Source: Stigonema sp.
GTDB lineage: Bacteria; Cyanobacteriota; Cyanobacteriia; Cyanobacteriales; Nostocaceae
Direction of reading: 5' to 3'
DNA length: 64,000 nt
Assembly: GCA_965249805.1 (NCBI GenBank)
Contig: CBDFMX010000002.1
Span: 1,214,639-1,278,638, forward strand
Shown here in pieces: positions 6,781-51,828 of the stretch (the stretch's first letter is position 1; each line of letters begins with the position of its first letter). A model generated the notes under the pieces. It was not told the DNA's origin. It worked only from the letters and a program-made list of their open reading frames with translations, and did no database searches. A program made the position numbers and the translations under genes.

Positions 6781-7028
6781 TGTTTTAGGTGTGCAATCAA
6801 ACTAGAACGGGTTTGTGACCTCCCACTTTGATTGTACCAGGCTAGGGTAGACTGCCTAATGGTTCCTACTTCACTACGTTCTAAGCGGTCGAGGTTACGC
6901 CTCATGTGGCTACTAGAAACGATTATTGAGGAGCCGAAAAAGTGAACAAATAAAGGTCGTTGACTCCGGTTAACTCCGATATTTGGCTACTCTAGGTGTA
7001 CAGAGCTTACAAAAATATTTATTTACTT

Positions 7029-7328
7029 TTATCCTTCTGCCGTTTCGCCTTGAGGCTCCTCAGACATAGGTTCCGACTCTGCTTCCGGTTTGATGGGACT
7101 GGGTTGAGGCTTAACGGGTTTCGGACCACGCGCTAGGGCAGGACTAGCCTGCTGCCTGACTTCGTTGCCAAAAGATGCTTTTTTGCCTTTACCCGACGAG
7201 CGGTCTTCGATCCGTTTTAATACTTTGGGAGTGGATTCTACAGGAGGTATAAAATCCGAATTCCCAGAATCGTTGTCAGTACTCTCTTTGGCCTGACGTT
7301 CAGATTTCTTGATTGGGCGTTCTACCAT
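7029..7328 (-). CDS. hypothetical low-complexity (Pro/Lys/Glu/Ser-rich) protein
   Basis: 99-aa ORF with ATG start. Composition suggests a disordered protein. No family recognised. Confidence 0.3.
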   Translation of the reverse strand: MVERPIKKSERQAKESTDNDSGNSDFIPPVESTPKVLKRIEDRSSGKGKKASFGNEVRQQASPALARGPKPVKPQPSPIKPEAESEPMSEEPQGETAEG

Positions 7329-7585
7329 TGTTAAGTTCTGTTAAGTCCTTTGGATATAATACCTCGCTTTGCTACTGACCGAACTGATGTTTTTCGCCTT
7401 GACGGAGTATTTTTTTAGAATCCAACTTGTAACAAGGATAGACATTTTTTGTATAATACTATAAATAAGGTAGATAAACAGAAAAACTTAATGTATCTTC
7501 AACTCATAGCAGACTTTTTCCGGATCGGAGCACTTAGCACTTCGGGAAGAGTTTAATGTCTTTGAGTACCCGGATTTAGGAAAGT

Positions 7586-8460
7586 ATGGAACATTCTACC
7601 TCTATCACCTCGATAGCAAGACATTCATCACCAGCCGAGCGACTCTCATTCGGGAAAGCCTTGCGTGATACTGTACCGCGATCTACTCACGGCAACTGGA
7701 ATCAAAGTGCCGATCGCCCCGATCCGATCGCCGCCTTAGAGGCATCTAGCCAAGGACGACTGCCCAAGAAGAGTGCCGATTCGGTATGGTCGGATGCTGA
7801 AGTCACCGTTCACCTTCCTTCGGGGTGCGGCGATCGTCATGGCGGCAGACCTTGCCACAACCCCTACCACAGGGATTAAAGTACAGGCATGTGGCGACTG
7901 TCACCTACTTAACTTTGGTGGGTACGGGACACCAGAAGGCAACCTCGTCTTCGACGTGAACGATTTCGACGAAACGCTTCCTGCCCCCTGGGAGTGGGAT
8001 ATTAAACGTTTGGCAACAAGCGTTGTCGTTGCAGGTCGCCACATCAACGTTTCGGCAAAGAACTGCTCCGAAGCAGCGCGTATAACTGCCTGCTCCTACC
8101 GGGAACACATGAGTAAATATGCTCAAATGGGTCCTCTTGAGGTATGGTACTCGCGCATTGATGCCAACGTTTTGCGTAACTTTAACCACCATGCCAAGCA
8201 CGGTCAACGCATCGATCAAAATGTAGAGACGCTAACACGCACCTCCGCCTCCGCGTTGCCAAAATTGACAGAGGTGGTTGCCGGACAGTGGCGAATTATT
8301 GACAAACCACCGTTGATGTACCACTTGCCACCTGACGATCTGCTTGAGGAAGAGGTGGAGTCTGTTTACCAGCATTACCGCCAAACCCTGCGGGATGACC
8401 TGCAAGTTCTGCTGAATCGCTATCGCCGTTTAAGTAAGTCACAAAATACTGGGATTAATC
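7586..8460 (+). pseudogene. DUF2252-family protein, 5' portion; contains a +1 frameshift near 7775 and is truncated by the IS607 insertion
   Basis: ORFs 7586..7879 and 7773..8477 in different frames jointly give the DUF2252 N-terminal signature (RDTVPRSTHGNWNQSADRPDPIAALE ... PIRYGRMLKSPFTFLRGAA ... CGDCHLLNFG ... FDVNDFDET). The match ends at LLNRYRRL, where IS sequence begins. Confidence 0.7.
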
Positions 8461-21294: not shown

Positions 21295-21842
21295 TTCTCC
21301 TGCTTGACTATCATCAAAATTTGTTTTGGCTGAAACGGAAAGCGATCGCGTTGATTACCGCTTGACCACTGTGTAGATGCTAGTGTTAGCGTTTCAGCTT
21401 CCCGATTTTGTTGGCGTTGTTAGGATAGAATTTGCTTCTTAAAATGCCAATTTGAGATGATATATTCACCCTAGTATTTTGAATGAGGAAGATGTGAAGT
21501 GTTAAAATGAATCAACCCTAATCAATAAGAAACATTTATTTGAGTATTTTTTCAGTTAAATTAATCTTATCTTACAACCTATAAGTGAATCATTAAGTTA
21601 TGTAACCGATCCAACATCTAGCCGAATCGCACTTGTCCTGATCTTGGCATCGGCAGACTTCGCATTTATGCATAGGGTAATTACGAATTACGAATTACGA
21701 ATTACGAATTATTTATAACAACCCTCAGACCACAATTACAACTGGTACGTTAAGCAGATTGGGAAGTGTCCCTAGTCCCCTTCCAGTCGTTCCATGGTTA
21801 TCTAATATTTATCGATGCCGCCACAAACTATAAGCAGTTACT

Positions 21843-23100
21843 ATGACTCACTTCGGCATCATCTGTCCTGGAACGACTGGACACCTGAACACCATGTTTC
21901 CGCTGGGTCGCGAACTGCAACTGCGCGGTCATCGTGTGACTTTATTTGGGGTACAAGATGCTCAACCCAAGACACTGCAAGCAGGATTGGAATTTCGGGC
22001 GATTGGCGAATCTGAGTTTCCCCGTGGGGCGATCGCACAACATTTGACTCACCTAGGAAAACTCAGCGGACTCAGCGCATCGCAATATACTCTCAAAGTA
22101 CTCAAGCAGACAGCGGCTGTTATGCTTCGGGATGCACCGACGTGCTATCATTGATGCAGGTGTGGAAGCACTGTTAGTAGACCAAATTTCACTAGAGGGA
22201 GGAACTGTTGCAGAATTTTTGGAAATTCCCTTTATTACTATTTGCAGTGCTGTAGTACTTCATCAAGAAGATAGTATTCCCCCTTATTTCATGAACTGGC
22301 GCTATCATCCAGCTTGGTGGACACACCTGCGCAACCGTGCAGTTTACGGGTTGCTGAGTCTTACCAAACCCATGGGTGAGGTGATAGTTGAGTATCGCCG
22401 TTCGTGGAACTTGCCCACACTCACGCGCCTGAATGATAGCTATTCTCAACTGGCTCAGATCAGTCAACAGCCTGCGGAATTTGAATTCCCAAGGCAACAT
22501 TTGCCCCACTGCTTCCATTTTACCGGACCATTACATAGTTCAGTTGGTCGAGAAACTGTTGCTTTCCCAAATGAAAAGTTAACTGGGCAACCATTGATTT
22601 ATGCTTCAATGGGGACTGTACAAAATCGCTTGTTGAAAGTTTTCAACTGTATTGCAGAAGCTTGCAACGGGTTAGATGCCCAGCTAGTCATTTCTCTTGG
22701 TGGTGGTGCTAGCTTAGAATCTCTGCCAGAACTACCAGGTTCGCCCCTAGTCGTCGATTATGCGCCCCAACTAGAACTCCTAAAAACTGCCACCCTGACT
22801 ATTACCCATGCAGGCATGAATACTACTTTAGAATCCTTAAGCAATGGAGTGCCGATGGTCGCAATTCCAATTGCAAACGATCAGCTTGGGGTAGCGGCGC
22901 GTCTAGCTTGGACAGGGGCTGGTGAGGTTGTACCCTTAGCCCGTCTGAACATTCCCAGACTGCGACAAGCTATCAAGCGGGTACTGACTGAAGATTCTTA
23001 TCAAAAGAATGCATCCAGATTACAAGGAGCAATTCGTCGATCTGGGGGGGTAAATCAAGCTGCTGATATTGTGGAACAGGCTGTGATCTACCGGGAAGCC
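21843..23100 (+). pseudogene. GT1-family UDP-glycosyltransferase (CrtX/MGT-like), single-base frameshift near 22140
   Basis: N-terminus THFGIICPGTTGHLNTMFPLGRELQLRGHRVTLF is the GT1 N-domain. The C-terminal domain (ORF 22132..) carries the PSPG-like segment YAPQLELLKTATLTITHAGMNTTLESLSNGVPMVAIPIANDQ. The two halves are in different frames. The 3' tail of the second ORF runs into a hairpin repeat and is not real coding. Confidence 0.6.
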
Positions 23101-23342
23101 TGTCTTATATCAAGTTCGCGCTTATTACTTATAATAAAGAACCTCTCCCCCAACCCCTCCCCTATTAGGGGAGGGGAGACTTTGACGCAAGTCAAAGGCG
23201 GGGAGAGGTCAAACTTAAAGGATAAGTCATTTACCGAACATGATATTAGCTCAAACGCCGCAACTTGTATATAGCAGTCCGATCTGATTTGTGAAATTCT
23301 TCGTTTGGTGGGCATTGCCCACCCTACAACATCAAAGTTTTC

Positions 23343-25985: not shown

Positions 25986-27836
25986 TTAATTCCCTTGCTG
26001 TTGTACAAGCTCCCAGAGTTTGATAGTTTTATCCCTGCTGCCACTAACAATTTGTTGTGCATCAGGGCTAACAGCAACGGCAGACACTGAGTCTACATGA
26101 CCTGAGAGAGTAGCAATCTCTTTTTTTGTGCTTACACTCCAGAGTTTGACAGTCTTGTCCCTACTTCCACTGATCAGCGTTTCCCCATCAGTACTAAAAG
26201 TTACTGCTACTACCGACCAGGAATGACCTAGAAGTGTGCAAATTAGCTGACCAGTGTTTACCTCCCACAATCTAATAGTGTTATCATCGCTACCACTTGC
26301 TAGAATTTTCCCATCAGGACTGAAGGCGACTGTCAAAACCGCCCATGTATGACCTGAAAGGATGCTCGAAAAGTTGTAGTTTCGGAGGTTTTTGAGTTCT
26401 CCTACACACTCAAAAGCTCGATCGACTTCCCATAAGCGAATAGTTCTGTCAAAACTAGCACTGGCAAGAATCCCCCCATCGGGGGGGATCGAGCTAAATG
26501 CCACTGCACTTACTTGTAATTGGTGTCCACTCAGTGTGCAAATCTCTTGGCTCGTCTTTACATCCCAGAGTTTCACTGTCTTATCCCAACTGCCACTAGC
26601 TAGTAGCTTACCATCAGAACTAAAAGCGACTGATTTAACTGCATGAGAGTGTCCAAACAGGGTGCATATTTCTTGGAATGTGTTAACGTTCCACAATTTA
26701 ATAGTTTTATCATCGCTAGCGGTTGCCAAAATTTCTTCATTAGGACTGAAGGCGATCGCTCTTACAGCTTGAGAATGTCCAGTGAAACTGCGGAGCAATT
26801 TTTTTGTATTTAAATCCCATAATCTCATCGTTTTGTCATCATGACCACTGGCTAAGATCTGAATAATCTCCCCTTGATCGGGAGGGTTTGTTCCGATCGA
26901 ACTAATAGCAATTGAATTCACGCTACTTAATACACCAGAATGTCCAGTAAAAGTATGTATACAATGCCAAGGGCGAATGGGGAACAGACGTTCCGGTGGA
27001 ACGTCTGTACGGGAATGGATGCCCATTGCTTGCATGACTTCATCGGCGGATTGAAAGCGATTAATTACATCATGTTGCAGCAGCTTGTCAAGGATTTTAC
27101 CCAACATGAAGCTGACTTTTGTTGTTAGGTACTGTTGCCAAGCCCAACAATTATTAGGGACATCAAATAAATCAAAAGGAGGAATCTGGGTGAGTAAGTA
27201 AATGCAAGTCACACCCAAGCTATAAAGGTCACTTGCAAATACGGGTTTTCCCTGTACTTGCTCAGGAGCGGCATATTCTGGACTACCAACGCTCTTGTCA
27301 TTAGACTTATCTGTAAATTGCTGTAGAATATAGTCTCTTGGGTCAAAATCCCTATTAGAAATTGAAAAATCTCCAAAATTAACCAAGACCATATCCCCGC
27401 CTAACCTTCTCTCACTAAGGGGGGATCTGAGGATGATATTTTCGGGTTTAATATCGCAGTGAATGACGTTGCGATCGCCAATAAACTTGAGAACAGGCAA
27501 CAAATCCTCTAAAAGTTGCCAAATCTGAGTTTCACTGAAGGCTCCCACCTCCTCCACTAAGGTAGCCAAGTTACTACCCTCAATGAACTCTTGCACTAAG
27601 TAAAAGTGATCGTCCTGCGGAAAATGTGCAAGTATTGCGGGAATTTGTGGATGTTTGCCTAACTCCTCAAGCCGTTGTGCTTTTTGCTCAAAGACGAATG
27701 GTGTTTGATTTTGCAGCCATTGTTGAACGACACAAGGAACTTTTGGAGATAAACCCTCATCCACAGCGAGGAAGGTTTTGCAAAATCTGAATTGACCAAT
27801 CTGTTTGAGTAAGCGATAACGTTCAAGTATTAGCAT
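25986..27836 (-). CDS. Ser/Thr protein kinase with C-terminal WD40 repeats
   Basis: Kinase subdomains: HCDIKPENIIL, DFG, APE. The C-terminal half has repeated GH...WD units (LWDLNTKK, LWNVNTFQ, LWDVKTSQ, LWEV, LWSV, LWEL). Confidence 0.85.
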   Translation of the reverse strand: MLILERYRLLKQIGQFRFCKTFLAVDEGLSPKVPCVVQQWLQNQTPFVFEQKAQRLEELGKHPQIPAILAHFPQDDHFYLVQEFIEGSNLATLVEEVGAFSETQIWQLLEDLLPVLKFIGDRNVIHCDIKPENIILRSPLSERRLGGDMVLVNFGDFSISNRDFDPRDYILQQFTDKSNDKSVGSPEYAAPEQVQGKPVFASDLYSLGVTCIYLLTQIPPFDLFDVPNNCWAWQQYLTTKVSFMLGKILDKLLQHDVINRFQSADEVMQAMGIHSRTDVPPERLFPIRPWHCIHTFTGHSGVLSSVNSIAISSIGTNPPDQGEIIQILASGHDDKTMRLWDLNTKKLLRSFTGHSQAVRAIAFSPNEEILATASDDKTIKLWNVNTFQEICTLFGHSHAVKSVAFSSDGKLLASGSWDKTVKLWDVKTSQEICTLSGHQLQVSAVAFSSIPPDGGILASASFDRTIRLWEVDRAFECVGELKNLRNYNFSSILSGHTWAVLTVAFSPDGKILASGSDDNTIRLWEVNTGQLICTLLGHSWSVVAVTFSTDGETLISGSRDKTVKLWSVSTKKEIATLSGHVDSVSAVAVSPDAQQIVSGSRDKTIKLWELVQQQGN

Positions 27837-27871: not shown

Positions 27872-28198
27872 TTATTCCTGTGTTTCTTTTGATTCCGTAT
27901 CTTCTGCAACTTGGAAGATTTGTTCTATGTCTCGCGATCCATGAACGACACGCACAATTTCAATTCCCTCCTCTATAGGACGGTAAAAAATGATGTAGCT
28001 TCCTACTGGAAAACTCCGTAGACAAGAAGCTAGGTTAGGGCGCAACCGTCCCATCTGAGGAAACTTTGCTAGTATTGAAAACTGTTCTCGCAGCTTGTCA
28101 AAGAGATTATCAGCAGCTTGTTGACTGTTTTGACCAACGTAGTTCCAGATGTCATCAATGTCTTGTATTGCTTGAGCAGAAAGCCTATATCTGCTCAT
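27872..28198 (-). CDS. parE: ParE/RelE-family toxin
   Basis: 108 aa. The I..IW.Y......Q.A..L...L......L...P.MG start and the C-terminal YIIFYR..E..IEIVRVVHGSRD are typical ParE/RelE. Confidence 0.7.
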   Translation of the reverse strand: MSRYRLSAQAIQDIDDIWNYVGQNSQQAADNLFDKLREQFSILAKFPQMGRLRPNLASCLRSFPVGSYIIFYRPIEEGIEIVRVVHGSRDIEQIFQVAEDTESKETQE

Positions 28199-28554
28199 AG
28201 GGCATCATTAGTCGCCAACCTTTTAAGTCCTCTGGCTTTAATGTCTTCAAACAAAGCCGACAAAGACTCTTCGTCGTATTCAGTATATTGACCATTCTCA
28301 AGCTGCTCTATTCCAACAGCTATATCGCGTCGCAGCGCTTCTAACTTTAGTGTCCGAAGTTCTTCTTCGACACGCTCAAGCCGATCCATCATTTCTTGGA
28401 ACGCTCGTGCTTCATGTACTACAACTTCAGCTTTCCCGTTGACGGTTAGCACAAGCGGGGACTTTGTTGCTTTTATCCGCTCTACGTACTCTTTGGTGTT
28501 TCGCTTAAAGTCAGTAAGGGTTTGAATATCTTCAAGATTGATCCGAGTTTCCAT
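28195..28554 (-). CDS. cognate antitoxin (Phd/YefM- or ParD-like)
   Basis: 119 aa, overlapping the toxin start by 4 nt (ATGA). N-terminus TDFKRNTKEYVERIKATKSPLVLTVNGKAEVVV resembles Phd/YefM. Confidence 0.6.
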   Translation of the reverse strand: METRINLEDIQTLTDFKRNTKEYVERIKATKSPLVLTVNGKAEVVVHEARAFQEMMDRLERVEEELRTLKLEALRRDIAVGIEQLENGQYTEYDEESLSALFEDIKARGLKRLATNDAL

Positions 28555-28708
28555 AAAATCTAATAAAGCACTTTATGATATGTTTAATTAGATGTTAAGC
28601 TTTATATTTGCTTTGGTCAAGAGGTAATAGTTTCGTAGGTTTCGCCTTAATGAAACCGGATCTGGCGGTACAATATGAAAAAACGATTGTGTGATGGAAG
28701 TTTGACCA

Positions 28709-33286: not shown

Positions 33287-33910
33287 ATGCCAAAAATTTC
33301 TATCAACGAAGCTGCTAAATTACTTGGCGTCTCTGCCGATACCTTGAGACGTTGGGAAGAAGAAGGAAAGATTCAATCAGAACGCACGGAAGGGGGTCAT
33401 CGCCGTTATGATGTTGCCAAGTTACTCAACAGAAAAGAGCCACAAGGTAAGACTATCTGCTACGCCCGTGTTAGTACTCGTCCTCAGAAAGCCGACTTAG
33501 AGCGTCAAGTTGCGGTATTATCCGCTTATTGTGAGCAACATGGTTGGGATTATGAGGTGATTAAAGACCTTGGCTCTGGAATAAATTATAGTAAGAAAGG
33601 CTTATTGAAACTCCTGAATCTGATTGTATCTGGAGAAATACGCCGTCTGGTTATCACTCATAAAGATCGATTAATGCGCTTTGGTGCAGAGATGATTTTC
33701 AGTTTATGTGAAATGTTTGAGACTGAAGTCATTATTATTAATCGTTCAATGGAAACCAGTCCCGAAGAAGATCTTGCTGAAGATGTGTTGGAAGTCATTA
33801 CTGTTTTCTCTGCCAGACTATACAGCTTACGCAGCGATCAAAACAGGATGCTAATCGATGAATTAGAAAAAACTGCTAAAAGAATTAAAGAAAATTCCGT
33901 AATTGACTAG
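33287..33910 (+). CDS. tnpA: IS607-family TnpA (HTH plus serine recombinase), solo copy without an adjacent tnpB
   Basis: LGVSADTLRRWEEEGKIQSERTEGGHRRY (MerR-like HTH) and ICYARVSTRPQKADLERQ (catalytic Ser). Paralogous to the 8501..9100 gene. A -35/-10-like TTGACT...TATGTAAAAT lies upstream. Confidence 0.8.
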   Translation: MPKISINEAAKLLGVSADTLRRWEEEGKIQSERTEGGHRRYDVAKLLNRKEPQGKTICYARVSTRPQKADLERQVAVLSAYCEQHGWDYEVIKDLGSGINYSKKGLLKLLNLIVSGEIRRLVITHKDRLMRFGAEMIFSLCEMFETEVIIINRSMETSPEEDLAEDVLEVITVFSARLYSLRSDQNRMLIDELEKTAKRIKENSVID

Positions 33911-33959
33911 GAAAATTCGGTAGATTAAAGTCGTGTTATACATTGATGGCATGACCGAA

Positions 33960-34000
33960 TAATTCGTAATTCGTAATTCGTAATTCGTAATTAAAGAGGG
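33960..34000. repeat. STRR heptamer array (AATTCGT)x5
   Basis: taattcgtaattcgtaattcgtaattcgtaatt, read directly. Confidence 0.85.
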
Positions 34001-34034
34001 TACTTGCCAAAGCACTAAGCCTGATATGCCAGAT

Positions 34035-34150
34035 GCCGTCATGATATCAAATCCGGTTGATTGCACATGGTATTTGTAGGGGCACAGCAGTGCTGTGCCC
34101 CTACCGTTTGTGTGTTCATTTAACCGGATTTGATATGACAACTGATCTGA
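34035..34150. repeat. about 100-bp MITE (TIR tcatatcaaatccggtt / aaccggatttgatatga, central hairpin gtaggggcacagcagtgctgtgcccctac); second copy at 63225-63335
   Basis: The two copies are more than 95% identical by eye. Confidence 0.75.
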
Positions 34151-34628
34151 GGGAATCCCAAAAAATAAATTCTCCATTCCGTAGGGTGTGTTAGCGCTAC
34201 TCGTAACGCACCCTACTATTTTTTTAATTGGAAGTCCCTTAGCAATACTGCTCGGTTAAGATAAATTATCAACCGTCAACGTATGTAGAGACGCGACGCC
34301 ATAAAGCTTGGTGCAGTCGCCTACGGCGGGAAACACTCATTCAGCGCTGCAACACCTGTCGCCTACGGAGGGAGACACTCATTCAGCGCACCGCGAGAAT
34401 TTCGCGTCTCTACACCGATTTAATTCCCACCAGAAATCCAAAACCTACGTAGTATTGAGTCCCTTAGTACTTTCCATCCTAAGTCATCTGTATTAAAAAA
34501 GTTATAGATGTTAGATTAAACACCGAATATCATTTGACAAAAATTCAATTAAATGTTATAATTAGCTTCATTTTTTAACCAGATTTAAGCTACCATAAGG
34601 GTATCCACTGAACGCAGTCCAAATTTCC

Positions 34629-35216
34629 ATGTCTCGTTGGTTTAATACCGCAGGTCCAAGGCATCGCCGACATTCATTATATGCTGTCGCCGACCATTCG
34701 GTTGCCTAACTTGGAGCAGATGATTGAACAACGTAGCTATTTTGTGATTCATGCGCCTCGTCAAACGGGTAAAGGTGAGACAGCCCTGAAGGAGGGTTTC
34801 CCTCCGTAGGGGACTGCTTTCCCGTTGGGCGTCAGCATGGCGAACCGTTGCTTGGTAGTGCAGTTTACCATGAGATTGCACCTCATTTAGTGCTGATGGC
34901 GTTTTTACATCGCGTGGTTAATGGTGGTGGAACTCTCGAACGCGAATATGCGATTGGACGCGAACGCATGGATTTGTGTCTGACATATGGAAAGATAACA
35001 TTAGGGATTGAGTTAAAAGCTTGGCGTGATCAAAAGAAAGACCCATTAGAAGCTGGTTTGTCACAGTTAGATTCTTATTTGGCACGGTTGGGAGAAGATT
35101 TTGGTTGGTTAGTTATTTTCGACCGACGCAGCAATGCACTACCTTTAGATGAACGGTTGGCGACTCAAGTTACAACTACGAAAAATGGACGTTCTGTCAC
35201 CGTTGTGCGTGCATAG
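34629..35216 (+). pseudogene. AAA-ATPase-like/PD-(D/E)XK nuclease family (DUF1703 type) gene remnant; N-terminal about 50 codons fused to the C-terminal nuclease domain across a deletion and a hairpin-repeat insertion
   Basis: MSRWFNTAGP start and, after a 1-nt shift, ADIHYMLSPTIRLPNLEQMIEQRSYFVIHAPRQTGKGET (Walker A). This runs straight into the hairpin gaaggagggtttccctccgtagg. ORF 34848..35216 carries GRERMDLCL...IGIELK, the PD-(D/E)XK core. Confidence 0.55.
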
Positions 35217-35507
35217 GGGTAGTAATGCAACACTTCTCGGTTAAGGGTAGTTGCTCCGGAGAAACCGGGTTTGTGTGAAGTAAACTAGAAATAGCGATAA
35301 TTTTGATGAGTTTTGGGGAAAACCAGCCATTGTTAAATGACAACCTACCCAGGTACTTGCCCTCTGCTGAAAAATTACCCGATGACCATACCCGTGTGGT
35401 AATGGTGCTGGTTAAGGCGATCGCAGTCAACCCAATATCTCACCACCATGCTCATCCAAGTTTATACTCATACATATTTTTAGAATAAAGCTAAAGAGGT
35501 TCTAGAT

Positions 35508-37710
35508 ATGGAATTGTTAGTTCCTTGGGGCGTAGTTAACATTTCGGGGTTTATTTTTAAACCAATTCTTGAAGAAATTGCGAAATTGACGACAGCCGCC
35601 TTAGAAGATTACGTTAAGAATTTCTTTGGCGTATCTATCAAAAATTGGGTGGATATCGCTAAAGAAATATCTTTAAAAATTGCTTTTGGTAAAGCTATTA
35701 AAGAATTTTTAGGATTGGTGCAACAAGAATTAGAAGATGCAGATGTAGATGTAGATGAAATAAAGCAATATAAAACTTCTTTAAAAGAGTTTATTCTCGA
35801 TCGATCTGTTCTCGAAGAACTTGGAAAGCCTCTTCAAAAAGCCTTGGGCAACACCACATCTGAGACTAACAGTCAAACTATCGATACTACAATATTAATA
35901 CAAAATTGGAATAATCTCAATTTAAAGGTTTTACCACCAAATTTTAATTGGCAGCAACTTGCAAAAAGATATGTGAAAAAACTTAATTCTATACTGCGAG
36001 ATTCTGATGAACTACAGAAAGTGTTGGATTCAGCAAGTCTGGCAGGAATACGGGAAACCCTTGCACAAGTGGCTCCCATTTCACCTGATTTTGATTTTAC
36101 TCGTTATAAGAATGGTTTGATGACAGCTTATGGCAACCTAAAATTGGATAGTTTAGACACTAGCGGTAGTCATTATACTCTACAACTGTGGATCATATTT
36201 GTGGCACAAAAAGTGCTGGAAGAGAGTTCTCAACAACAAACTGAAGGCTCTGTATTTGATCTACTAAATAATGATCGGCAAAATTATAAATATACGGTAA
36301 TTTTAGGCAACCCCGGTTCTGGTAAGTCTACTTTAGCGCAATATAAAGCAATAGAATGGGCAAGGAATTCATCGGAGAGATTTGTCATTACAAGAATTAC
36401 CCTTATTAATTGAATTACGCAACTATATCGCCGAGAAAGATAATTATAATAATTTTTTGGAATACTTACATAAAGGAACTGGGTTACGTGGTGGTAACCT
36501 AAATCAAAAAGAACTGGATGACTGGTTAAAAAATCAATCATCAATTGTGATGTTTGATGGTCTAGATGAGGTACTGGATACCAGAAAACGAGAAAATGTA
36601 GCTATTGATATTATTAATTTTAGCATAACTTATCCAAAAGTACGAGTTTTAGTCACATCTCGTGTCATTGGTTATGAAGATCAGCATCAAAAATTCCGAG
36701 ATGCAAATTTTCGTCATTTTATGCTGCAAGATTTAGATGAAGAGCAAATCTGTAGTTTTGTCACTCAGTGGCATAAATTGGCTTTTGGTGACGACAATGA
36801 AAGGAATAAAAAACGCGATCGCTTGCAAAAAAGTATAGAAAATTCTCGATCTTTTAGAGAATTGGCAGGGAATCCCTTGCTGCTGACAATGATGGCAATT
36901 CTCAATAGACATGAGGAATTGCCAAGAGATAGAGCAACTCTCTACGAACACGCATCTATGGTGTTGCTACAAAAGTGGGATGCAGAGCGAAATCTGCAAG
37001 ATAAATCTCTAGAGCCTAAAATTAGTGGCTATCTTGACTATAAAGTGAAACAAGACATGCTGCGAAAAATCGCTTACAAAATGCAATCAGACGCAAGTGT
37101 TATTGGCAATAGTTTAGTTATCACTGGAGATGCTCTAGAAAAATTCATCACTGGTTATTTAAGAGATAGAGGATTTAACGAACCCCATTTGATTGCCAAA
37201 GTGTTACTGAAACAGCTAACGGATCGTAGCTTTATATTGTGTTTTATGGGAGGAGATAGTTATAGCTTTGTGCATCGTACTTTTTTGGAATATTTCTGTG
37301 CTTGGTATTTTATTTGGGAATACGAACACGAAAAAAATATCTCACTGGAAGACCTCAAAGAGAAAATTTTTGCCAAGCGATGGACAGATGAAGCTTGGCG
37401 CGAAATAATTATTTTAATTACTGGTAAAATTTCGGAGAAATTTGCTGCTGAACTTATAGATTCTTTAGTTGAAAAAGATGGAAAATCACGTGATTTTGAC
37501 AATTTGTTGATAGCATGTGAATGCCTGCAAAACGTTAGAAATCGCTCGTTGATTAAAGAAACAGACAGGAAACTGCTTGATAAACTGAAAGACTTGCTTA
37601 CTAGGCAGCCTGGGATAAAGAATGAAATACGCAATAAGGTAGTTGCAGTCGTTAAAGCTACTTGGCATGATGATTCAGAAACTTTACAATGGGTTGAAGC
37701 TTTAGCTTAG
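35508..37710 (+). CDS. NACHT-family STAND NTPase (paralog 1) with uncharacterised about 270-aa N-terminal domain; +1 frameshift at about 36380
   Basis: Walker A VILGNPGSGKSTLAQY at the end of ORF 35508..36413. Walker B IVMFDGLDEV and GNPLLLTMMAIL sit in ORF 36382..37710. Alignment to paralog 2 places an extra A within tcatcggagagatttg. Confidence 0.7.
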
Positions 37711-37940
37711 TAAAATAGAGTTAGAAGGTAAGGATTCAGGTCTAAAGTTAAGGTATTAAAGATGGTGGTTGCAGATCAGGGTTGACCATTGCTTTTATAG
37801 CTTGCTCAAAAAAGAGAATAATTTCATTAAACCCCGACGACTGGAAGTCGCGGCTACACAGACAAAGTCCGCCTACGCGGACTAACCTAAATATAGGGTT
37901 TCAAATTTAATTTGGCGAGAGTAATAAAAGAGCGTTATTT

Positions 37941-40900
37941 ATGCTAGACCGCGTAGTTGCTTGGGGAGTCAGGAATTTATTCGGGTTTGTCTTTAAGACT
38001 CTCCTGGAAGAACTGGCGCGGAACAATTTAGAAAAATCTACCCAAAACTTTTTCTATAAACGGTTACAAAATTTTCCTTTTGCTATAGGGATTCGGCAAC
38101 AAGAAAGTTTAGAAATTGTATTTGGTCAAGCCTTAAAGGAATTTTTGTTGCAGGTACAGCAGCAATTAGAAGATGCAGATTTGTCGGAAAAAGAAATTCA
38201 GCAGTACATTAACCCCTTGCGGCAGTTTATTAGTGATCAAAATGTACAGGTAGAACTGGGAAAGCCATTTCTAGATGAAGTTTCTGATGCTGGCACTTTG
38301 GCAGAGATTTGGCTTGAGTTAAAATTGTCACCGCTACCCGCCGATTTTGACTGGGAACTACTTACCAAACGATATGCTAAGAAAGCTAAGGCTATCCTGC
38401 AAGAATCGGATGAATTATATTCTATTCGTGAACCTAAAAATCTCGCAGCAATCCAGAAAAATACCAAAGAATTTGCTGGGATTGTGCCAGATTTTGATTT
38501 GATGCGTTATCGAACAGAAGTTCAAAAAGCTTATGGTTATCTCAGACTGGATAACTTTGATACATCAGGTTACAGTTACAACCTGAAGTTATGGAATATG
38601 TTCGTAGCACAAAATGTGCGTGAGGTGAATGAAGCTTTGCCACAGGTTTATGAACTACCAAAAGAACATATAGAACGGCTCAAAAAAAGTGGTCAACTGG
38701 AAGATCTAGAAATAGGACCAGAAATTTTAGAACAATACAAACGGGCTTACTCTCAACAAGCCAGCCGCTCGGTATTAGAACTGATTGCCGAGAGGCAGAC
38801 TTATAAATACATTGTGATTTTAGGTGATCCTGGCTCTGGCAAATCTAGTTTGTTGCAATACTTAACGCTGCTATGGGCAGAAGCACCAATTCAGGATTTG
38901 TCCTCATTACCAATTCCCTTGCTGATTGAATTACGTACCTATGTACGGAGTCGAGATAATCAGGAATGTGAAAATTTCTTGGAGTTTTTCCAGCAAGGAG
39001 GTGGGTGCATCTGTCCTCTCAATTTGCCTCAACTTGATGCACTGCTAACAAGTGGTAAGGCATTTGTGATGTTTGATGGCTTGGATGAAGTATTTGAACC
39101 TATTAAACGAGAAGAAGCTATTACAGATATTATTAATTTTACCCAAAAGTATCCCTTGGTGCGGGTGTTGGTGACTTCTCGGGTGATTGGCTATAAGCCG
39201 CAAAGATTGCGAGATGCAAATTTCCGGCAGTTTATGCTGCAAGATTTAGAACCAGAACAAATTCAGGAGTTTATCAACCGCTGGCACGATTTTGCCTTTA
39301 ACGACTCTTTGGAAAAGCAAAGAAAAAAAGAACGCCTTGAAAGGGCAATTCATGATTCCCTGGCAATTCGCCAACTTGCTGGTAATCCCTTGTTGCTGAC
39401 AATGATGGCAATTCTTAACCGCAATCAGGAACTACCAAGAGATAGAACAGAACTTTATAGCCAAGCCTCACGAGTGCTACTACAGCAATGGGATTTAGAA
39501 AAACTCTTGATGGAGGTAGAACCGACAACAATTGATTACAAAGATAAGCAGGAGATGCTACGTCAAGTTGCCTATCATATGCAAACCAGTGAAAAAGGTT
39601 TGGCAGGCAACTTGATTAGCAAGGATGATTTAGAAAAGATTTTAATGGGCTATTTGAAAAATATAGGAGTTACTCAAGAAACAAGAAAAGCGCAGTTGAT
39701 AATTGAGCAGCTACGCGAACGCAACTTTATTTTATGCTTTTTAGGTGCGAATTACTATGCTTTTGTACATCGGACTTTTTTGGAATACTTCTGTGCTTGG
39801 GAGTTTGTCTGGCAGTTTGAGAAAGAACGAAACATTACATTGGATGATCTTAAAAGGAAAGTTTTTGGCAAACATTGGCAAGATGAAACATGGCACGAAG
39901 TCTTGCGCCTAATTGCCGGAATGATTGATGCCAAGTTTGTTGGTGAAATTATTGATGACTTAATGGCGCAAAATGGCGAAGAGGAAAAGTTTATCAACCT
40001 CTTTTTGGCGGCTAAGTGTCTTACAGAGGTGAGAAATCGCTCAGTAATTGCCTCAATTGCTACTAAATTACTTAACAAGATCAAACACTTAACTAAATAT
40101 GACCTTTGGTACTATTACGTACCCGATGGCGAAGAAACTAAGCTAGTTCAGGAAATTCGCACCCAAGCGGTTGCAGCAGTTGCAACAACTTGGCAAGAAT
40201 CTCCCGACACCAAAACCTTCCTCATTGAACGCGCCTCCACTGATGATCGTTGGGATGTGCGACGTGCAGCAGTGCAAGAATTAGCACGGGGATTCAAAGA
40301 TGACCCTGACACCAAAACCATCCTCATTGAACGCGCCTCCACTGATGATGATGGGATGTGCGAGGTGCAGCAGTGCAAGAATTAGCACGGGGATTCAAAG
40401 ATGACCCTGACACCAAAACCATCCTCATTCAACGCGCCTCCACTGATGATCGTTGGGATGTGCGACGTGCAGCAGTGCAAGAATTAGCACGGGGATTCAA
40501 AGATGACCCTGACACCAAAACCTTCCTCATTCAACGCGCCTCCACTGATGATGATGCGGATGTGCGACGTGCAGCAGTGCAAGAATTAGCACGGGGATTC
40601 AAAGATGACCCTGACACCAAAACCTTCCTCATTCAACGCGCCTCCACTGATGATCGTTGGGATGTGCGACGTGCAGCAGTGCAAGAATTAGCACGGGGAT
40701 TCAAAGATGACCCTGACACCAAAACCATCCTCATTGAACGCGCCTCCACTGATGATCGTTGGGATGTGCGACGTGCAGCAGTGCAAGAATTAGCACGGGG
40801 ATTCAAAGATGACCCTGACACCAAAACCTCCTTTGAACGCGCCTCCACTGATGATCGTTGGGATGTGCGACGTGCAGCAGTGCAAGAATTAGCACGGGGA

Positions 40901-42252
40901 TTCAAAGATGACCCTGACACCAAAACCATCCTCATTGAACGCGCCTCCACTGATGATCATGCGGATGTGCGAGGTGCAGCAGTGGAAGAATTAGCACGGG
41001 GATTCAAAGATGACCCTGACACCAAAACCATCCTGAACGCGCCTCCACTGATGATCATGAGGATGTGCGACGTGCAGCAGTGCAAGAATTAGCACGGGGA
41101 TTCAAAGATGACCCTGACACCAAAACCATCCTCATTGAACGCGCCTCCACTGATGATGATGCGGATGTGCGACGTGCAGCAGTGCAAGAATTAGCACGGG
41201 GATTCAAAGATGACCCTGACACCAAAACCTTCCTCATTGAACGCGCCTCCACTGATGATCATTGAGTATGTGCGAGGTGCAGCAGTGGAAGAATTAGCAC
41301 GGGGATTCAAAGATGACCCTGACACCAAAACCTTCCTCATTGAACGCGCCTCCACTGATGATCATGAGGATGTGCGACGTGCAGCAGTGCGAGAATTAGC
41401 ACGGGGATTCAAAGATGACCCTGACACCAAAACCATCCTCATTGAACGCGCCTCCACTGATGATCATGAGGATGTGCGACGTGCAGCAGTGCAAGAATTA
41501 GCACGGGGATTCAAAGATGACCCTGACACCAAAACCATCCTCATTGAACGCGCCTCCACTGATGATCATGGGATGTGCGACGTGCAGCAGTGCAAGAATT
41601 AGCACGGGGATTCAAAGATGACCCTGACACCAAAACCATCCTCATTCAACGCGCCTCCACTGATGATCGTTGGGATGTGCGACGTGCAGCAGTGCAAGAA
41701 TTAGCACGGGGATTCAAAGATGACCCTGACACCAAAACCTTCCTCATTCAACGCGCCTCCACTGATGATCGTTGGGATGTGCGAGGTGCAGCAGTGCAAG
41801 AATTAGCACGGGGATTCAAAGATGACCCTGACACCAAAACCATCCTCATTGAACGCGCCTCCACTGATGATCATCAGTATGTGCGACGTGCAGCAGTGCA
41901 AGAATTAGCACGGGGATTCAAAGATGACCCTGACACCAAAACCATCCTCATTGAACGCGCCTCCACTGATGATCATGAGTATGTGCGACGTGCAGCAGTG
42001 CAAGAATTAGCACGGGGATTCAAAGATGACCACGGGATGTTTGAAGTGTTTTACAAGTGCGCTGTCAAAGACCCCTTTAAGCGTGAGAATGACGAGCAAT
42101 ACAACCCTCGGCAAGTTGCACTTAACGTTATTATCAAGCAATATCCTCACTATCCCCAAACTTTACCACTATTGCGCGACAAAGCCGAAAATGACCCAGA
42201 TGAGCAAGTGCGGGAGTTTGCTAAAAAAAAGTTGGCAGCATTAGAGAAGTGA
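37941..42252 (+). CDS. NACHT-family STAND NTPase (paralog 2) with C-terminal array of about 20 HEAT-like repeats; reading frame interrupted several times inside the repeat array
   Basis: The N-terminal domain is homologous to paralog 1. Walker A IVILGDPGSGKSSLLQY, Walker B FVMFDGLDEV, GNPLLLTMMAIL. From about 40190 onward, 31-aa units PDTKTFLIERASTDDRWDVRRAAVQELARGFKDD repeat. The C-terminal tail ...REFAKKKLAALEK ends at 42252. Confidence 0.7.
40190..42030 (+). repeat. 93-bp tandem coding repeats (about 20 units, near-identical) encoding HEAT/PBS-lyase-like repeats
   Basis: The unit gatgaccctgacaccaaaacc(a/t)tcctcattgaacgcgcctccactgatgatcgttgggatgtgcgacgtgcagcagtgcaagaattagcacggggattcaaa repeats with few substitutions. 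Four units carry indels (about 40340-40385, 41030-41050, 41255-41290, 41560-41580) that break the frame. Confidence 0.85.
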
Positions 42253-42640
42253 ATAATTCGTAATTCGTAGTTCGTAATTCGTAATTAATAAATTAAGGAT
42301 ACTTGCACCTTGTTCATTCATGAAAAAATAATATAGCGGTTCCCTTATTGGTAAGGTACATATCTTGTGGGGGAGCCAGCACTCTCCGGCGGGTTTCCCG
42401 CCGTAGGTGACTGGCGTTGGGCTTCCAGCCCGCCCTTTCGATGGACGGGCGCTTATGCCCATCCCACAAGACAAAGACTGTACCTCATTGAAACGAAAAG
42501 CGCTATAAATGCGTTCTGCACAATATTCATGCATGGGGACGCCAATAATGCTGTCCGGCTTAGCCACACCGCATTTTTGCTCCTAATAATTACGAATTAC
42601 GAATTACGAATTACGAATTATTTTGACGGAAGCCAAAGAT
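42253..42640. repeat. MITE (about 310 bp) flanked by inverted STRR heptamer arrays (AATTCGT x4 on the left, AATTACG x4 on the right)
   Basis: aattcgtaattcgtagttcgtaattcgtaatt ... aattacgaattacgaattacgaattacgaatta. Internal hairpins ccggcgggtttcccgccgtagg and tgcccatcccacaaga are shared with repeats at 20281 and 20858. Confidence 0.65.
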
Positions 42641-48360: not shown

Positions 48361-51300
48361 ATGACAGGAAGACATTGGTTGGTTTGGTGTTTGCAGTTGG
48401 GATGGGTGGGACTATTGGGGTGGATAGGTGCGATCGCCTTTGCCAGCAGTACGTTTGCCCAGAGCAGAATCGTGCCAGATAACACACTCGGTGCTGAGTC
48501 TTCTATTGTTACACCCAATGTTCAAAATTTGCCTAGAGTCGAAATTACTGGTGGGGCAGTTCGCGACGCAAATTTATTTCACAGTTTTCGGGAATTTAAT
48601 GTCGATAATGGACGAGGAGCCTACTTCCAGAATCCTAATGCTAGTATCAAAAATATATTCACACGAGTCACAGGTAATAACCGCTCAGAAATTTTCGGAA
48701 CTCTGGGTACAATTGGCAATGCTGCCAACTTGTTTTTGATTAATCCCAACGGGATTATTTTTGGTCCGAATGCGGTATTGAATGTAGGCGCTTCATTTGT
48801 AGGCACAACAGCTAACGCAATTGAATTTGGAAACTTCGGGATTTTCAGTGCTTCCACACCAGTTGCACCCGGACCAATACTTACAATCAATCCTTCAGCG
48901 TTGCTGTTCAATCAAGTCTCACCAGCTTCAATTACAAATATGTCAACTGCACCCGCCGGACTCAATCCAGTAGGTGTTGAGGTCACAGGTTTGAGAGTGC
49001 CAGATGGTCAAAGTTTACTATTAGTTGGTGGTAATGTCAACGTAGAAGGTGGTAGCCTCAGAGCTTATCAAGGTCACATCGAGTTAGCTGGGTTAGCTGC
49101 ACCGGGAACGGTGGGATTAAATTTGGCAGATAATACTCTCAGTTTGAATGTGCCAGAAGGAGTAGCCAGAGCAGATGTATCTCTCACCAATGGGGGAGAA
49201 GTGAATGTCCGTGGAGCCAATGGCGGTAGTATTGCTATCAATGCACAGAACGTGAATTTAGCAGGAGAAAGTAAACTGCGTGCAGGGATAGAATCAGGAT
49301 TGGGTACGCCAGATAGCCTAGCCGGAGATATTGAAATCAATGCCACAGGGTCAACAACTCTCAGTGATGGTAGCTTTATTACTAACGCAGTGCAACGGCA
49401 AGCTGTAGGGAAAGGTGGCAACATTAATATCAATACAGGTTCGCTCACACTACGCAATAATCCTATTTTGGGTACCAATACATTTTTGGATGCCAGTACC
49501 GTAGGGCAAGGAGATAGCGGTAGGGTATTTGTGCAGGCATCGGGAGCTGTATCTCTTGCCAATAGCAGAATCTTCAGCAGTTCGGAAGCGAACGCAGTCG
49601 GCAATACTGGCGGAATTTTTATTACAGCCGAGTCGCTTTCTCTTACTAATGGTGCTGCCTTGAATGCCAACACGGATGGGCTTGGGGATGCTGGCGCGGT
49701 ATTTGTGCAAGCATCGGGCGCTGTATCTCTTGCCAATAGCAACATATTAAATGATGTGGACGCTGGGGCGGTAGGTAATAGTGGCGGTATTAACATCAAT
49801 GCCGCGTCACTTTCCCTCACTGATGGCGCTGCCTTGACAGCCAGTACGAATGGGCTTGGGGATGCTGGCAAGGTATTTGTGCAAGCATCGGGCGCTGTAT
49901 CTGTTGCCAATAGCACCATATTCAATAATGTGGAAACTCGGGCAGTAGGTAATAGTGGTGGTATTTTTATTACAGCCGAGTCGCTTTCTCTGACAGATAA
50001 CGCTCAACTACAATCTAGTATTTTGAGAGCCAAAGCACCATATATTGGTGGTCGTGGTAATCCAGGAGGAGTAAATATTAATGCAGGCGCGGGCGTCACT
50101 TTAGCTGGAAGTATCATTTACACTGATGTCGGATCTGGAACTGTGGGCAATGGTGGAGATATTAACATAAAGGCTAGGTCTTTCTCTTTAACTGATGGCG
50201 CTGTCTTGCAAGCCATCAACGCAGGGCAAGGAAATGGAGGTAATATTACGATTGATGCCCGCGATACAGTTAAGTTTGATGGCACAGGGGTCAATTCAAT
50301 AAGTCAAAGTGCCGTGCAAAGCAGCATACAACCTGGAGGTGTAGGAAAAGGGGGAGACGTGAGAGTGACAACTGGCTCACTCTCACTGACTAATGGTTTT
50401 CTACTGTTTGCTAGCAATGCTGGGCAAGGAAATGCAGGTAATATCACCATTGATGCCCGTGATACCATAACCTTTGACGGTACAGGAAGCAGCGCCAGCA
50501 CTGAAGTAGGAAATAATAGCGTAGGTAGTGGTGGAGATATCCGCGTGAATACTAGGGCGCTGTTCTTAAAGAATGGTGGTCAACTCACTGCTAGTAACTT
50601 CGGACAGGGCAATGCAGGCAGTATCATTATCAATGCCAGCGATACTATTGCCTTTGATGGCGTCGGCAGCGATGGATTTGGGAGTGGCGCTTACAGCACA
50701 GTAGAATCAACTGGCGTAGGAGATGCAGGCAATATCAACGTCACAACTAGGTTGCTGTCTTTAAACAACGCTGCTCAAATCAATGCCAGTACTTATGGTT
50801 TTGGCGACGGAGGCAACATCACAATCAATGCTAACACTTTTGAAGCCTTGAATGGCGGACAAGTGGCAACCAGTACGACAGGAACTGGTAAGGCAGGAAC
50901 TATCAACCTCAATCTTAAAGAAAGCTTAACTTTAGCAGGAAGTGACCGCAACTTTACTCAACGCCCTAGTGGAATCTTCGCCAAAACTGATTCTGGTTCT
51001 ACGGGACAAGGAGGCAGCATATTTATTGACCCCCGTCAAGCCACTATTAGAGATGGGGCAAAGATATCAGTTAATAGCGATGGTACAGGCAATGCAGGCA
51101 ATATTACCCTACAGGCAGGCACTCTCACCCTTGACAAGGGCGCCTCGATTTCTGCTCAAACTTTTAGTAGTCAAGGTGGTAATATTAACTTGCAGTTAGG
51201 AGACATTTTATTGCTGCGTCGCGGTAGTCAAATTTCTACCAATGCTGGTACTGCTCAAGCTGGTGGTGATGGTGGCAACATTAATCTCAACTCCAAATTT

Positions 51301-51828
51301 ATAGTTGCTATCCCAGATGAAAGCAGTGACATCACAGCAAATGCTTTCTCAGGCACAGGGGGTCGAGTACAAATTAATACTCAAGGTCTATTTGGCATCC
51401 AGTCGCGCCCACAGCCAACGGACAAAAGTGATATTACTGCTAGTTCTACCTTGGGTGTGGCAGGAGTTGTTAATATTAATACACCTGACCAAAATACTTT
51501 GCAAAACAACCTGACTCAACTACCCAAAAATATCATTGATGCTAACGCGCTGATTGCCAATAGTTGCATAGCTAGACGCCACAATCAGTCTGGTGGTACT
51601 TTCTTCATTATCGGCAATGGTGGTTTACAAGAGCGTCCTGGTGATGCTCCTCGTTCTCTTTATTCTACTGGAACTATACGCTCTGTACCAGATCAAGGTG
51701 AAAAAGCCATATCACCTACTTCCACAAGATCCGTCCGTCCTTGGAAAAATGGCGATCCGATTGTTGAAGCGCAAGGTATTTATCGACTGGCAAATGGTAA
51801 TTTGGTGCTGAGTCGAGAATGTCCTTAA
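48361..51828 (+). CDS. filamentous hemagglutinin N-terminal (TPS) domain exoprotein, TpsA-like, with long beta-helical repeat region
   Basis: Signal-peptide-like N-terminus. TPS domain motifs ITGGAVRDANLFHSFREFNV and LFLINPNGIIFGPNAVLNVG (NPNGI). Repeated GNAGNI[TN]I / GGxIxI beta-helix units follow. 1155 aa. No TpsB/FhaC partner lies in the window. Confidence 0.75.
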   Translation: MTGRHWLVWCLQLGWVGLLGWIGAIAFASSTFAQSRIVPDNTLGAESSIVTPNVQNLPRVEITGGAVRDANLFHSFREFNVDNGRGAYFQNPNASIKNIFTRVTGNNRSEIFGTLGTIGNAANLFLINPNGIIFGPNAVLNVGASFVGTTANAIEFGNFGIFSASTPVAPGPILTINPSALLFNQVSPASITNMSTAPAGLNPVGVEVTGLRVPDGQSLLLVGGNVNVEGGSLRAYQGHIELAGLAAPGTVGLNLADNTLSLNVPEGVARADVSLTNGGEVNVRGANGGSIAINAQNVNLAGESKLRAGIESGLGTPDSLAGDIEINATGSTTLSDGSFITNAVQRQAVGKGGNININTGSLTLRNNPILGTNTFLDASTVGQGDSGRVFVQASGAVSLANSRIFSSSEANAVGNTGGIFITAESLSLTNGAALNANTDGLGDAGAVFVQASGAVSLANSNILNDVDAGAVGNSGGININAASLSLTDGAALTASTNGLGDAGKVFVQASGAVSVANSTIFNNVETRAVGNSGGIFITAESLSLTDNAQLQSSILRAKAPYIGGRGNPGGVNINAGAGVTLAGSIIYTDVGSGTVGNGGDINIKARSFSLTDGAVLQAINAGQGNGGNITIDARDTVKFDGTGVNSISQSAVQSSIQPGGVGKGGDVRVTTGSLSLTNGFLLFASNAGQGNAGNITIDARDTITFDGTGSSASTEVGNNSVGSGGDIRVNTRALFLKNGGQLTASNFGQGNAGSIIINASDTIAFDGVGSDGFGSGAYSTVESTGVGDAGNINVTTRLLSLNNAAQINASTYGFGDGGNITINANTFEALNGGQVATSTTGTGKAGTINLNLKESLTLAGSDRNFTQRPSGIFAKTDSGSTGQGGSIFIDPRQATIRDGAKISVNSDGTGNAGNITLQAGTLTLDKGASISAQTFSSQGGNINLQLGDILLLRRGSQISTNAGTAQAGGDGGNINLNSKFIVAIPDESSDITANAFSGTGGRVQINTQGLFGIQSRPQPTDKSDITASSTLGVAGVVNINTPDQNTLQNNLTQLPKNIIDANALIANSCIARRHNQSGGTFFIIGNGGLQERPGDAPRSLYSTGTIRSVPDQGEKAISPTSTRSVRPWKNGDPIVEAQGIYRLANGNLVLSRECP

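Follow-up and report, generated by a model that had tools for sequence, protein, structure and literature searches.

Two co-oriented genes encoding NLR-related proteins lie at positions 35508 to 42252 of a 64,000-nucleotide stretch of Stigonema sp. DNA (GenBank assembly GCA_965249805.1, contig CBDFMX010000002.1; hereafter the window). Gene 1 (35508..37710, + strand) is covered by open reading frames (ORFs) 35508-36413 and 36382-37710, and encodes a short, sensor-less protein composed of an NNH2 domain and a NACHT domain. Gene 2 (37941..42252, +) is covered by ORFs 37941-40385, 40358-41092, 41210-41602 and 41575-42252, and encodes a long protein in which NNH2, a linker and NACHT are followed by a HEAT array and a C-terminal cap. 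The stop codon of gene 1 at 37710 and the ATG of gene 2 at 37941 in the ORF list are separated by 230 bp. With one extra base removed, gene 1 reads as 734 residues and can be aligned over its full length to 16 intact orthologues of 714-740 residues; repair of five insertions or deletions (indels) in gene 2 gives a product of about 1439 residues, whose intact homologues of 1135-1273 residues are 67-77% identical to it. The two proteins are 45% identical over about 730 residues, spanning NNH2, NACHT and the helical region. We propose that the two genes represent a conserved NLR module, organised like an operon and consisting of a sensor and a sensor-less partner, a reading to which we assign a probability of roughly 0.5.

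The motifs of a NACHT core were located in both genes. Walker A reads GNPGSGKS at 36306..36329 in gene 1 and GDPGSGKS at 38823..38846 in gene 2, Walker B reads MFDGLDEV at 36550..36573 and 39069..39092, and the GNPLLLTMMAIL motif lies at 36868-36903 in gene 1 and 39381-39416 in gene 2 (all +). Both genes also contain the TSR motif and the winged-helix motif FVHRTFLEYF; in gene 1 the latter, with its conserved histidine, occupies 37267..37296 (+), the stretch at which the family profile matches the NACHT domain of NLRP3. The Walker A and B motifs, the TSR motif, GNPLLL and the winged-helix histidine were invariant across 17 short-form sequences. Gene 2 scored 42.4 bits against Pfam NACHT (PF05729; cut-off 26.7). 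The fragments of gene 1 scored below this cut-off because the frameshift splits the domain, and intact gene 1 orthologues carry PF05729. An AlphaFold2 model of repaired gene 1 (mean predicted local distance difference test score, pLDDT, of 78.9) found its best matches in the PDB to NLRC4 (4kxf, E 3.9e-12), NOD2 and NLRP3, with NAIP5 lower on the list, and the sequence profile of the family also touches NLRC4 and NLRP3. Since the Pfam assignment, the full set of core motifs and the structural matches agree, membership of both proteins in the NACHT clade of STAND NTPases, of the bacterial NLR-related (bNACHT) kind, is well founded.

An earlier reading of the same DNA, made from the sequence alone (the sequence-only reading), had described much of this anatomy, and the description held up well. 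It had proposed a co-oriented, homologous pair 230 bp apart, with bNACHT-like STAND NTPase cores marked by a GxPGSGKS Walker A and a MFDGLDEV Walker B, arranged as N-terminal domain, NACHT and C-terminal repeat sensor. It had placed the repeat solenoid in the downstream gene only and put it at about 20 repeats, a fair estimate of the 18 units and degenerate cap described below. It had also noted that the upstream gene stops early; in a pairwise alignment, the end of gene 1 coincides with the start of the first HEAT repeat of gene 2.

The N-terminal domain fared differently, having been put at about 270 residues and regarded as of unknown function, matching no effector motif that was recognised. 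The homology between the two copies stands, but the domain is classifiable: both copies are NNH2 (NACHT N-terminal helical domain 2, Pfam PF22734), at 35592..36161 in gene 1 (+; residues 29-218, E 3e-54) and at 38016..38564 in gene 2 (+; E 6e-47), with scores of 183.9 and 160.1 bits against a gathering cut-off of 27. NNH2 itself spans about 180-190 residues. Gene 2 adds a linker of about 70 residues before the P-loop (38622..38759, +; LPxVYELPKEHxxRL...), a feature of the long forms of which gene 1 and the other short forms lack about 40 residues. A HMMER scan of 1.84 billion representative proteins recovered 351 clusters with NNH2, which was almost always found within residues 1-250 of proteins of 700-1350 residues. 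All eight divergent members that were scanned carry NACHT, and five of the eight carry HEAT repeats, once with added TPR. NNH2 is no housekeeping domain; it was seen only ahead of NACHT and mostly together with HEAT. The idea that NNH2 is a swappable effector used in other architectures was considered and rejected on the same counts, namely its almost invariably N-terminal position in the 351 clusters and the NACHT domain that follows it in 8 of 8 scanned members. In one NNH2-NACHT protein of 1290 residues (P0233), NNH2 begins at residue 596, behind a 575-residue N-terminal region without a Pfam match; this protein is either a fusion or contains an unrecognised extra domain.

The AlphaFold2 model of residues 1-290 of gene 2 is all-helical, with a confident core at residues 50-155 (pLDDT above 90), and no solved structural relative of NNH2 was found. 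Conservation between short and long forms is confined to hydrophobic, aromatic, glycine, proline or glutamine positions; no invariant acidic, basic, histidine, serine or cysteine residue occurs in this alignment. Because of this residue composition, an enzymatic effector of a new type appears unlikely at the N-terminus, for which the sequence-only reading had thought a new type of effector possible; the domain is already catalogued and has no conserved residues of catalytic type. NNH2 is a lineage-specific and probably non-enzymatic domain. The name NNH appears in the legends to figures of the bNACHT paper, which discusses no function for these domains (Kibby et al., bioRxiv 10.1101/2022.07.19.500537). 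Our literature searches returned no description of NNH2 function and, as far as we found, no NNH2 member has been tested.

The evidence for a module comes from the distribution of the two forms. A search with gene 2 showed NNH2-NACHT-HEAT proteins of about 1200 residues to be very numerous in Nostocales and their relatives, and a search with gene 1 recovered a separate HEAT-less set of 714-740 residues at 50-66% identity. The family is restricted to morphologically complex cyanobacteria. Genomic contexts were collected by exact protein look-up together with a scan of species-representative genomes, and all ORFs were classified with the family hidden Markov model. In 13 of 13 other loci that contain a short form, it is directly followed by a long form on the same strand. 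These loci come from Nostoc ChiVER01, Nostoc P8219, Calothrix 336/3, Nostoc UHCC 0870, Scytonema PCC 10023, Oscillatoria SIO1A7, Microcoleus CAWBG58, Gloeotrichia echinulata, Iningainema tapete, a Pleurocapsa metagenome-assembled genome (MAG) and three further MAGs. By contrast, about 70 other long forms are solitary, with an 8-kb surrounding free of short forms; Anabaena PCC 7120, for instance, carries solitary long forms. Among the collected loci, none had a short form on its own. The long partners carry 3-18 HEAT units and the short forms stop at the first HEAT helix. In three pairs that were checked (two Nostoc and Calothrix 336/3), a 32-bp spacer with GGAG before the ATG is conserved, which points to co-transcription of the short and long genes.

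The genes flanking the pair vary: serA and prmA in two Nostoc, radical SAM and ilvA in Calothrix, SNase, hpf and lplA in Gloeotrichia and Iningainema, and an IS607-type recombinase and a BNR protein in the window. The sequence-only reading had suggested searching for the pair in other Nostocales, and had reckoned with the outcome that it might prove part of a fixed core-genome neighbourhood or be decayed in relatives. The search for co-conservation was strongly positive, with 13 of 13 loci, congruent clades and correlated distance matrices; the neighbourhood differs between genomes, and the genes are intact in two complete genomes (L003 and L004), and likewise wherever else no contig end truncates the locus.

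In a neighbour-joining tree, the short forms were monophyletic in 100 of 100 bootstraps and their long partners formed a clade of their own inside the long forms in 93 of 100. The distance matrices of the 13 short forms and their 13 partners were correlated (Mantel r = 0.74), a value reached in 1 of 5000 permutations. The linker between NNH2 and the P-loop measures 33 residues in the short clade versus 71-73 in the long forms. Taken together, the 13 of 13 adjacency, the clades, the correlated distances and the shared linker deletion argue for an old duplication followed by loss of the sensor from the upstream copy, the pair having been inherited as a unit since. A recent origin of gene 1 as a truncated duplicate of gene 2 was rejected, given the 45% identity, the separate orthologue family of 714-740 residues and the monophyly of the short clade. 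The deepest branch in the tree is a short form at positions 5631-7907 of locus L084, and one short form has a linker of about 70 residues instead of 33; loss of the HEAT array may therefore have preceded the linker deletion. Moorena producens 3L (L026, 4251-11990) has two long NNH2-NACHT-HEAT genes in tandem, the first of which matches the profile only from position 149 onward; this is a pairing of another kind than the short/long module.

The proteins themselves are of a known kind. They share with the bNACHT proteins described by Kibby et al. (2022/2023) the NACHT core, the named NNH2 domain (PF22734) and HEAT repeats in the "antigen-receptor type" C-terminal position, and NNH2-NACHT-HEAT proteins are an abundant, multi-copy family in cyanobacteria. 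What differs is the strict co-inheritance of a sensor-less paralogue with a sensor-bearing one; bNACHT genes have been reported to occur only rarely in operons, and those are poorly conserved (Kibby et al., bioRxiv 10.1101/2022.07.19.500537). An obligate pairing of sensor-less and sensor-bearing NLRs was not described in the literature on bacterial paired NLRs that our searches returned. As far as these searches show, the pairing is new.

The HEAT sensor array of gene 2 (40206..42031, +) was resolved by Tandem Repeats Finder into 18 copies of a 102-bp (34-residue) unit with 95% matches. It is followed by the C-terminal cap (42032..42252, +), the translation of which includes a last, degenerate HEAT repeat (DPDEQVREFAKKKL). 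HEAT_2 (PF13646) was detected on three of the gene 2 ORF pieces with E-values of 2.6e-38, 2.6e-25 and 5.2e-28. In a unit-by-unit listing, 13 units had the full length of 102 nt and five deviated from it. Only 12 of the 102 nucleotide columns vary among these 13 units, and none of the differences is purely synonymous. The affected residues are 5 (I/F), 8 (E/Q), 15-17 (RWD, DAD, HAD, HED, HQY or HEY), 20 (R/G) and 24 (Q/E/R), together with residue 34 in the last unit only. Entropy peaks at residues 15-17, 20, 24 and 5 recur in the arrays of about 50 other family members, and are clearest in about 12 other genomes with the most similar repeats. Positions 17, 20 and 24 share one helix face, as do 5 and 8 in helix A. 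Residues 15-17, 20 and 24 (helix B and the A-B turn) together with 5 and 8 (helix A) probably form a ligand-binding surface.

Across the family, an internal nucleotide identity of 65-97% is the rule, and in Calothrix 336/3 and Nostoc UHCC 0870, both complete genomes, the arrays run without interruption. Orthologues in different species have 9-18 units, and many paralogues with varying repeat numbers are found per genome. The repeats appear to be kept homogeneous by recombination between units, with a few residues diversified. Homogenised repeats with few diversified residues are known from fungal NLRs (PMC4986451, PMC1805685), and high internal repeat conservation has been noted for the WD and TPR repeats of bacterial NLRs (Dyrka et al. 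2020, bioRxiv 10.1101/2020.01.06.895854); the HEAT array is a further instance of this regime. The likeness to the fungal het-d, het-e and HNWD NLRs (Paoletti 2007, Dyrka 2014) extends to repeats that are at least 85-95% nucleotide-identical, variation at a few surface positions, repeat numbers that differ between relatives and arrays prone to misassembly. However, the fungal repeats are WD40, ANK or TPR rather than HEAT, and they serve allorecognition when hyphae fuse, a process that is absent from filamentous cyanobacteria.

In the assembly analysed here, gene 1 has one frameshift, and gene 2 has four frameshifts and one in-frame deletion of 3 nt. The gene 1 frameshift is one extra base (GAG-A-GAT, 36377..36379, +), a +1 shift at 36378; frame 0 reads ...WARNSSE and frame 1 reads DLSLQELPLLIEL, and the orthologues have one residue fewer at this site. 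All indels in gene 2 fall in the array (+ strand throughout). Unit 2 (starting at 40308, 101 nt) has lost 1 nt in its hypervariable codons at 40346..40359 and reads GATGA-TGGGAT, unit 7 (at 40817, 99 nt) has lost 3 nt in frame at 40824..40837, and unit 9 (at 41018, 98 nt) has a frameshifting deletion of 4 nt at 41028..41041. Unit 11 (at 41218, 103 nt) has gained 1 nt in its hypervariable codons at 41258..41271 and reads CATTGAGTAT, and unit 14 (at 41525, 101 nt) has lost 1 nt in its hypervariable codons at 41563..41576; the changes in units 2, 11 and 14 are likewise frameshifting. Three of the five repeat indels lie inside the hypervariable codons 15-17 and the other two between variable columns 13 and 22, and the aberrant strings, for instance that of unit 11, resemble blends of two unit variants. 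Misassembly of highly similar repeat arrays has been documented for fungal NLRs (PMC12222747). The indels in the array are likely to be consensus errors on mis-placed reads, because they sit at or beside the variable columns, where mis-placed reads of different units disagree. An independent contig from a related, 97%-identical strain (L090; ENA ERZ26165376, 96-98% identical by the atpD look-up) ends 69 nt past the array, and within the overlap the last 50 residues of gene 2 are identical.

The intergenic spacer (37711..37940, +) keeps the first 15 nt of the ancestral spacer of about 32 bp, followed by about 200 bp of extra sequence. The latter contains a dispersed 36-bp hairpin repeat (37848..37883, unstranded) with copies of 92-94% identity in two Nostoc loci (L027 and L052), and within it the palindrome GTCCGCCTACGCGGAC (37867-37882, inverted repeat). 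Scans for promoters and terminators performed no better than on shuffled controls.

A working model of the module can be outlined. The long form would act as the receptor, combining NNH2, a NACHT NTPase switch and a HEAT solenoid. The short form, an ancient paralogue, has lost the HEAT array and the roughly 40 residues before the P-loop and has kept NNH2 and all NTPase motifs. Binding of a variable, probably foreign ligand by the HEAT array would open the long protein, whose NACHT domain would then nucleate a mixed oligomer and draw in the partner that has no sensor, much as NLRC4 is recruited by NAIP. The NNH2 domains contributed by the two proteins would thereby cluster and produce a non-enzymatic output, through homotypic assembly or membrane attack, leading to cell arrest or death. 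We infer the hetero-oligomerisation, the direction of signalling, the NNH2 output and the role in defence or cell death.

The resemblance to the NAIP/NLRC4 inflammasome lies in two paralogous NACHT proteins, with NLRC4 and, lower down, NAIP5 among the matches of the gene 1 model, and in the idea that a ligand-bound sensor nucleates a second NLR, which for the present pair is a proposal. In contrast, NLRC4 keeps a leucine-rich repeat domain, repeats of any type being absent from the short form, and the output domain is CARD in NAIP/NLRC4 and NNH2 here. With the plant pairs RGA4/RGA5 and RRS1/RPS4 the module shares adjacent, diverged and co-inherited NLRs with an apparent division into sensing and non-sensing members; a recognition domain is indeed present in one member only, the long form. 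Plant pairs, however, are usually arranged head-to-head around a shared promoter and have an integrated decoy in the sensor, whereas the present genes form a tandem operon with both P-loops intact, and no integrated decoy or extra domain was found in the pair. The pairs of Bell-domain proteins and NLRs with amyloid motifs (Dyrka et al. 2020) are likewise two-gene NLR modules of multicellular bacteria in which a helical N-terminal domain is the proposed executioner; there, the partner is a small effector sharing the short amyloid motif, rather than a full NACHT paralogue. No amyloid motif was seen in the present pair, nor was one sought.

Several observations weigh against the proposal of a conserved module with divided roles. 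PADLOC, a check that the sequence-only reading had suggested, has no model that recognises either gene; the only matches were weak, P-loop-level ones to PtuA and AriA alone. No Avs model matched and NNH2 has no conserved residues of catalytic type, which places the pair outside Avs/AVAST. The neighbourhoods consist mostly of housekeeping genes with scattered toxin-antitoxin genes and transposases and are not classical defence islands, so that guilt by association with defence is weak. One deep-branching partner (L007, Oscillatoria) joins the partner clade in 48 of 100 bootstraps only. Both proteins retain intact NTPase motifs, unlike the degenerate motifs often seen in one member of a plant pair, and the tandem same-strand orientation offers no shared promoter of the plant, head-to-head type. 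Moreover, a sensor-less NLR is without the repeat domain that normally autoinhibits NLRs, making its silencing hard to explain. The present copy also invites the doubt that it is a dead pair of pseudogenes, with real frameshifts, in a genome that is losing the module. Five frameshifting indels fall within 6.7 kb, the spacer is disrupted by an insertion of roughly 200 bp with a dispersed repeat, and a glycosyltransferase at 21834-23271 in the window is also split. As the extra A of gene 1 does not lie in a homopolymer, that shift may be real. However, there are no in-frame stop substitutions, the units without indels are free of degenerative substitutions, and gene 1 deviates at 3 of 129 family-invariant columns, compared with 0-10 in intact orthologues; if gene 1 is a pseudogene, this suggests that it became one recently. 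The clustering of all repeat indels at or beside the few differing columns is the pattern of consensus calling rather than of random decay, and the intact pair of Nostoc UHCC 0870 has a long spacer too. Pseudogenisation in this genome is a serious possibility, although we hold it to be the less likely one.

If the module is functional, its parts could cooperate in more than one way. In the sensor/helper version, the HEAT receptor would sense a phage or other foreign protein and template a mixed ring resembling a resistosome or inflammasome, with NNH2 as a new non-enzymatic executioner acting by membrane attack or prion-like assembly. We put this forward tentatively, both the antiphage role and the division of labour being inferences. 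The short protein might instead be a brake: it would cap or poison the oligomers that the long receptor forms, or raise the activation threshold of that receptor, and so buffer auto-activity that may arise from reshuffling of the HEAT array. Strict co-inheritance with the short gene first in the operon, an order common for antidote-type genes, would suit such a role, as would the absence of the sensor and of the 40-residue segment before the P-loop, which might leave incomplete interfaces; the short forms also evolve slightly faster than their partners (mean pairwise distance 0.45 versus 0.40). A pure cap would not need the NTPase motifs and NNH2, however, and these are kept invariant in the short forms, while most long-form paralogues (about 70 loci) manage without such a brake. 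We therefore consider this role unlikely. That the two genes encode independent receptors that are merely adjacent is improbable: both proteins have a full NTPase core, but the adjacency in 13 of 13 loci across cyanobacterial orders, in differing neighbourhoods, together with the 32-bp spacer and the correlated divergence, exceeds expectation for such neighbours, and a short form was never found alone. We give equally little credence to a non-immune switch in signal transduction or regulation, for example one that governs cell death in filaments during development or under stress. The annotation [quoted passage not shown] is attached to homologues from Nostoc sp. NIES-3756, Nostoc sp. NIES-2111 and Nostoc punctiforme, and the housekeeping neighbourhoods and the restriction to morphologically complex cyanobacteria would accord with it. 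Hypervariable residues in homogenised repeats, in contrast, indicate a ligand engaged in an arms race and not a conserved endogenous signal, and many paralogues of varying repeat number occur per genome.

Innate immunity in plants and animals relies centrally on paired NLRs, of which one member senses and the other executes or amplifies. In bacteria, to our knowledge, NLR-related proteins have until now been investigated as single genes that combine all functions. If the sensor/helper version of the module is correct, prokaryotes arrived at a division of labour between NLRs on their own, independently of plants and animals. A co-inherited cyanobacterial two-gene module would make it possible to test whether such cooperation is ancient or recurrent, how a sensor-less NLR is silenced and what NNH2 does. 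The HEAT arrays show the fungal type of homogenised repeat, with few hypervariable residues, at work in a bacterial family, and they give direct access to specificity, because it is known which residues one would exchange. They also carry a practical warning, in that assemblies from long reads or metagenomes will probably present arrays of this kind as pseudogenes by mistake.

Elsewhere in the window, Rfam and tRNA scans were empty. Just upstream of the NLR pair, 33287-33910 (+) encodes a MerR helix-turn-helix and serine-resolvase protein (IS607-type transposase A). The following 1.6 kb (33911-35500) is without a long ORF, containing a 122-residue ORF (34848-35216) with no Pfam match, and may be a decayed mobile element. 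The segment 29892-33136 (-) encodes a DUF2887 protein and then a 749-residue SPFH/Band 7 protein, the C-terminal part of which is a long, repetitive coiled region. Two further genes singled out from the sequence alone proved real. The third NACHT gene (12948-15317, +) encodes an unrelated NACHT protein with NCH2 (NACHT C-terminal helical domain 2, PF22727) and without repeats. The WD40 kinase (25986-27836, -) is a Ser/Thr kinase fused to a WD40 propeller, and adjoins an intact ParE toxin and Phd-YefM antitoxin pair (27875-28204 and 28198-28572, both -). The split glycosyltransferase extends over 21834-22151 and 22057-23271 (+), with a GT28 N-terminal domain in the first ORF and UDPGT/GT28 C-terminal domains in the second, which lies in another frame. 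A large, haemagglutinin-like protein with a two-partner-secretion (TPS) domain is intact at 48361-51828 (+) in the window and split into products of 1012 and 151 residues in the related-strain contig L090 (5823-9279; 6x coverage). Arrays of a 7-bp unit, (TAATTCG)n or its reverse complement (AATTACG)n, were found at 42254-42286, 42588-42620, 21678-21714 and 33958-33993. The first two form an inverted pair around about 300 bp between gene 2 and the BNR gene, and copies of 36-37 nt lie at the two other sites and in L090. In appearance these arrays are close to the short tandemly repeated heptamers that heterocystous cyanobacteria carry.

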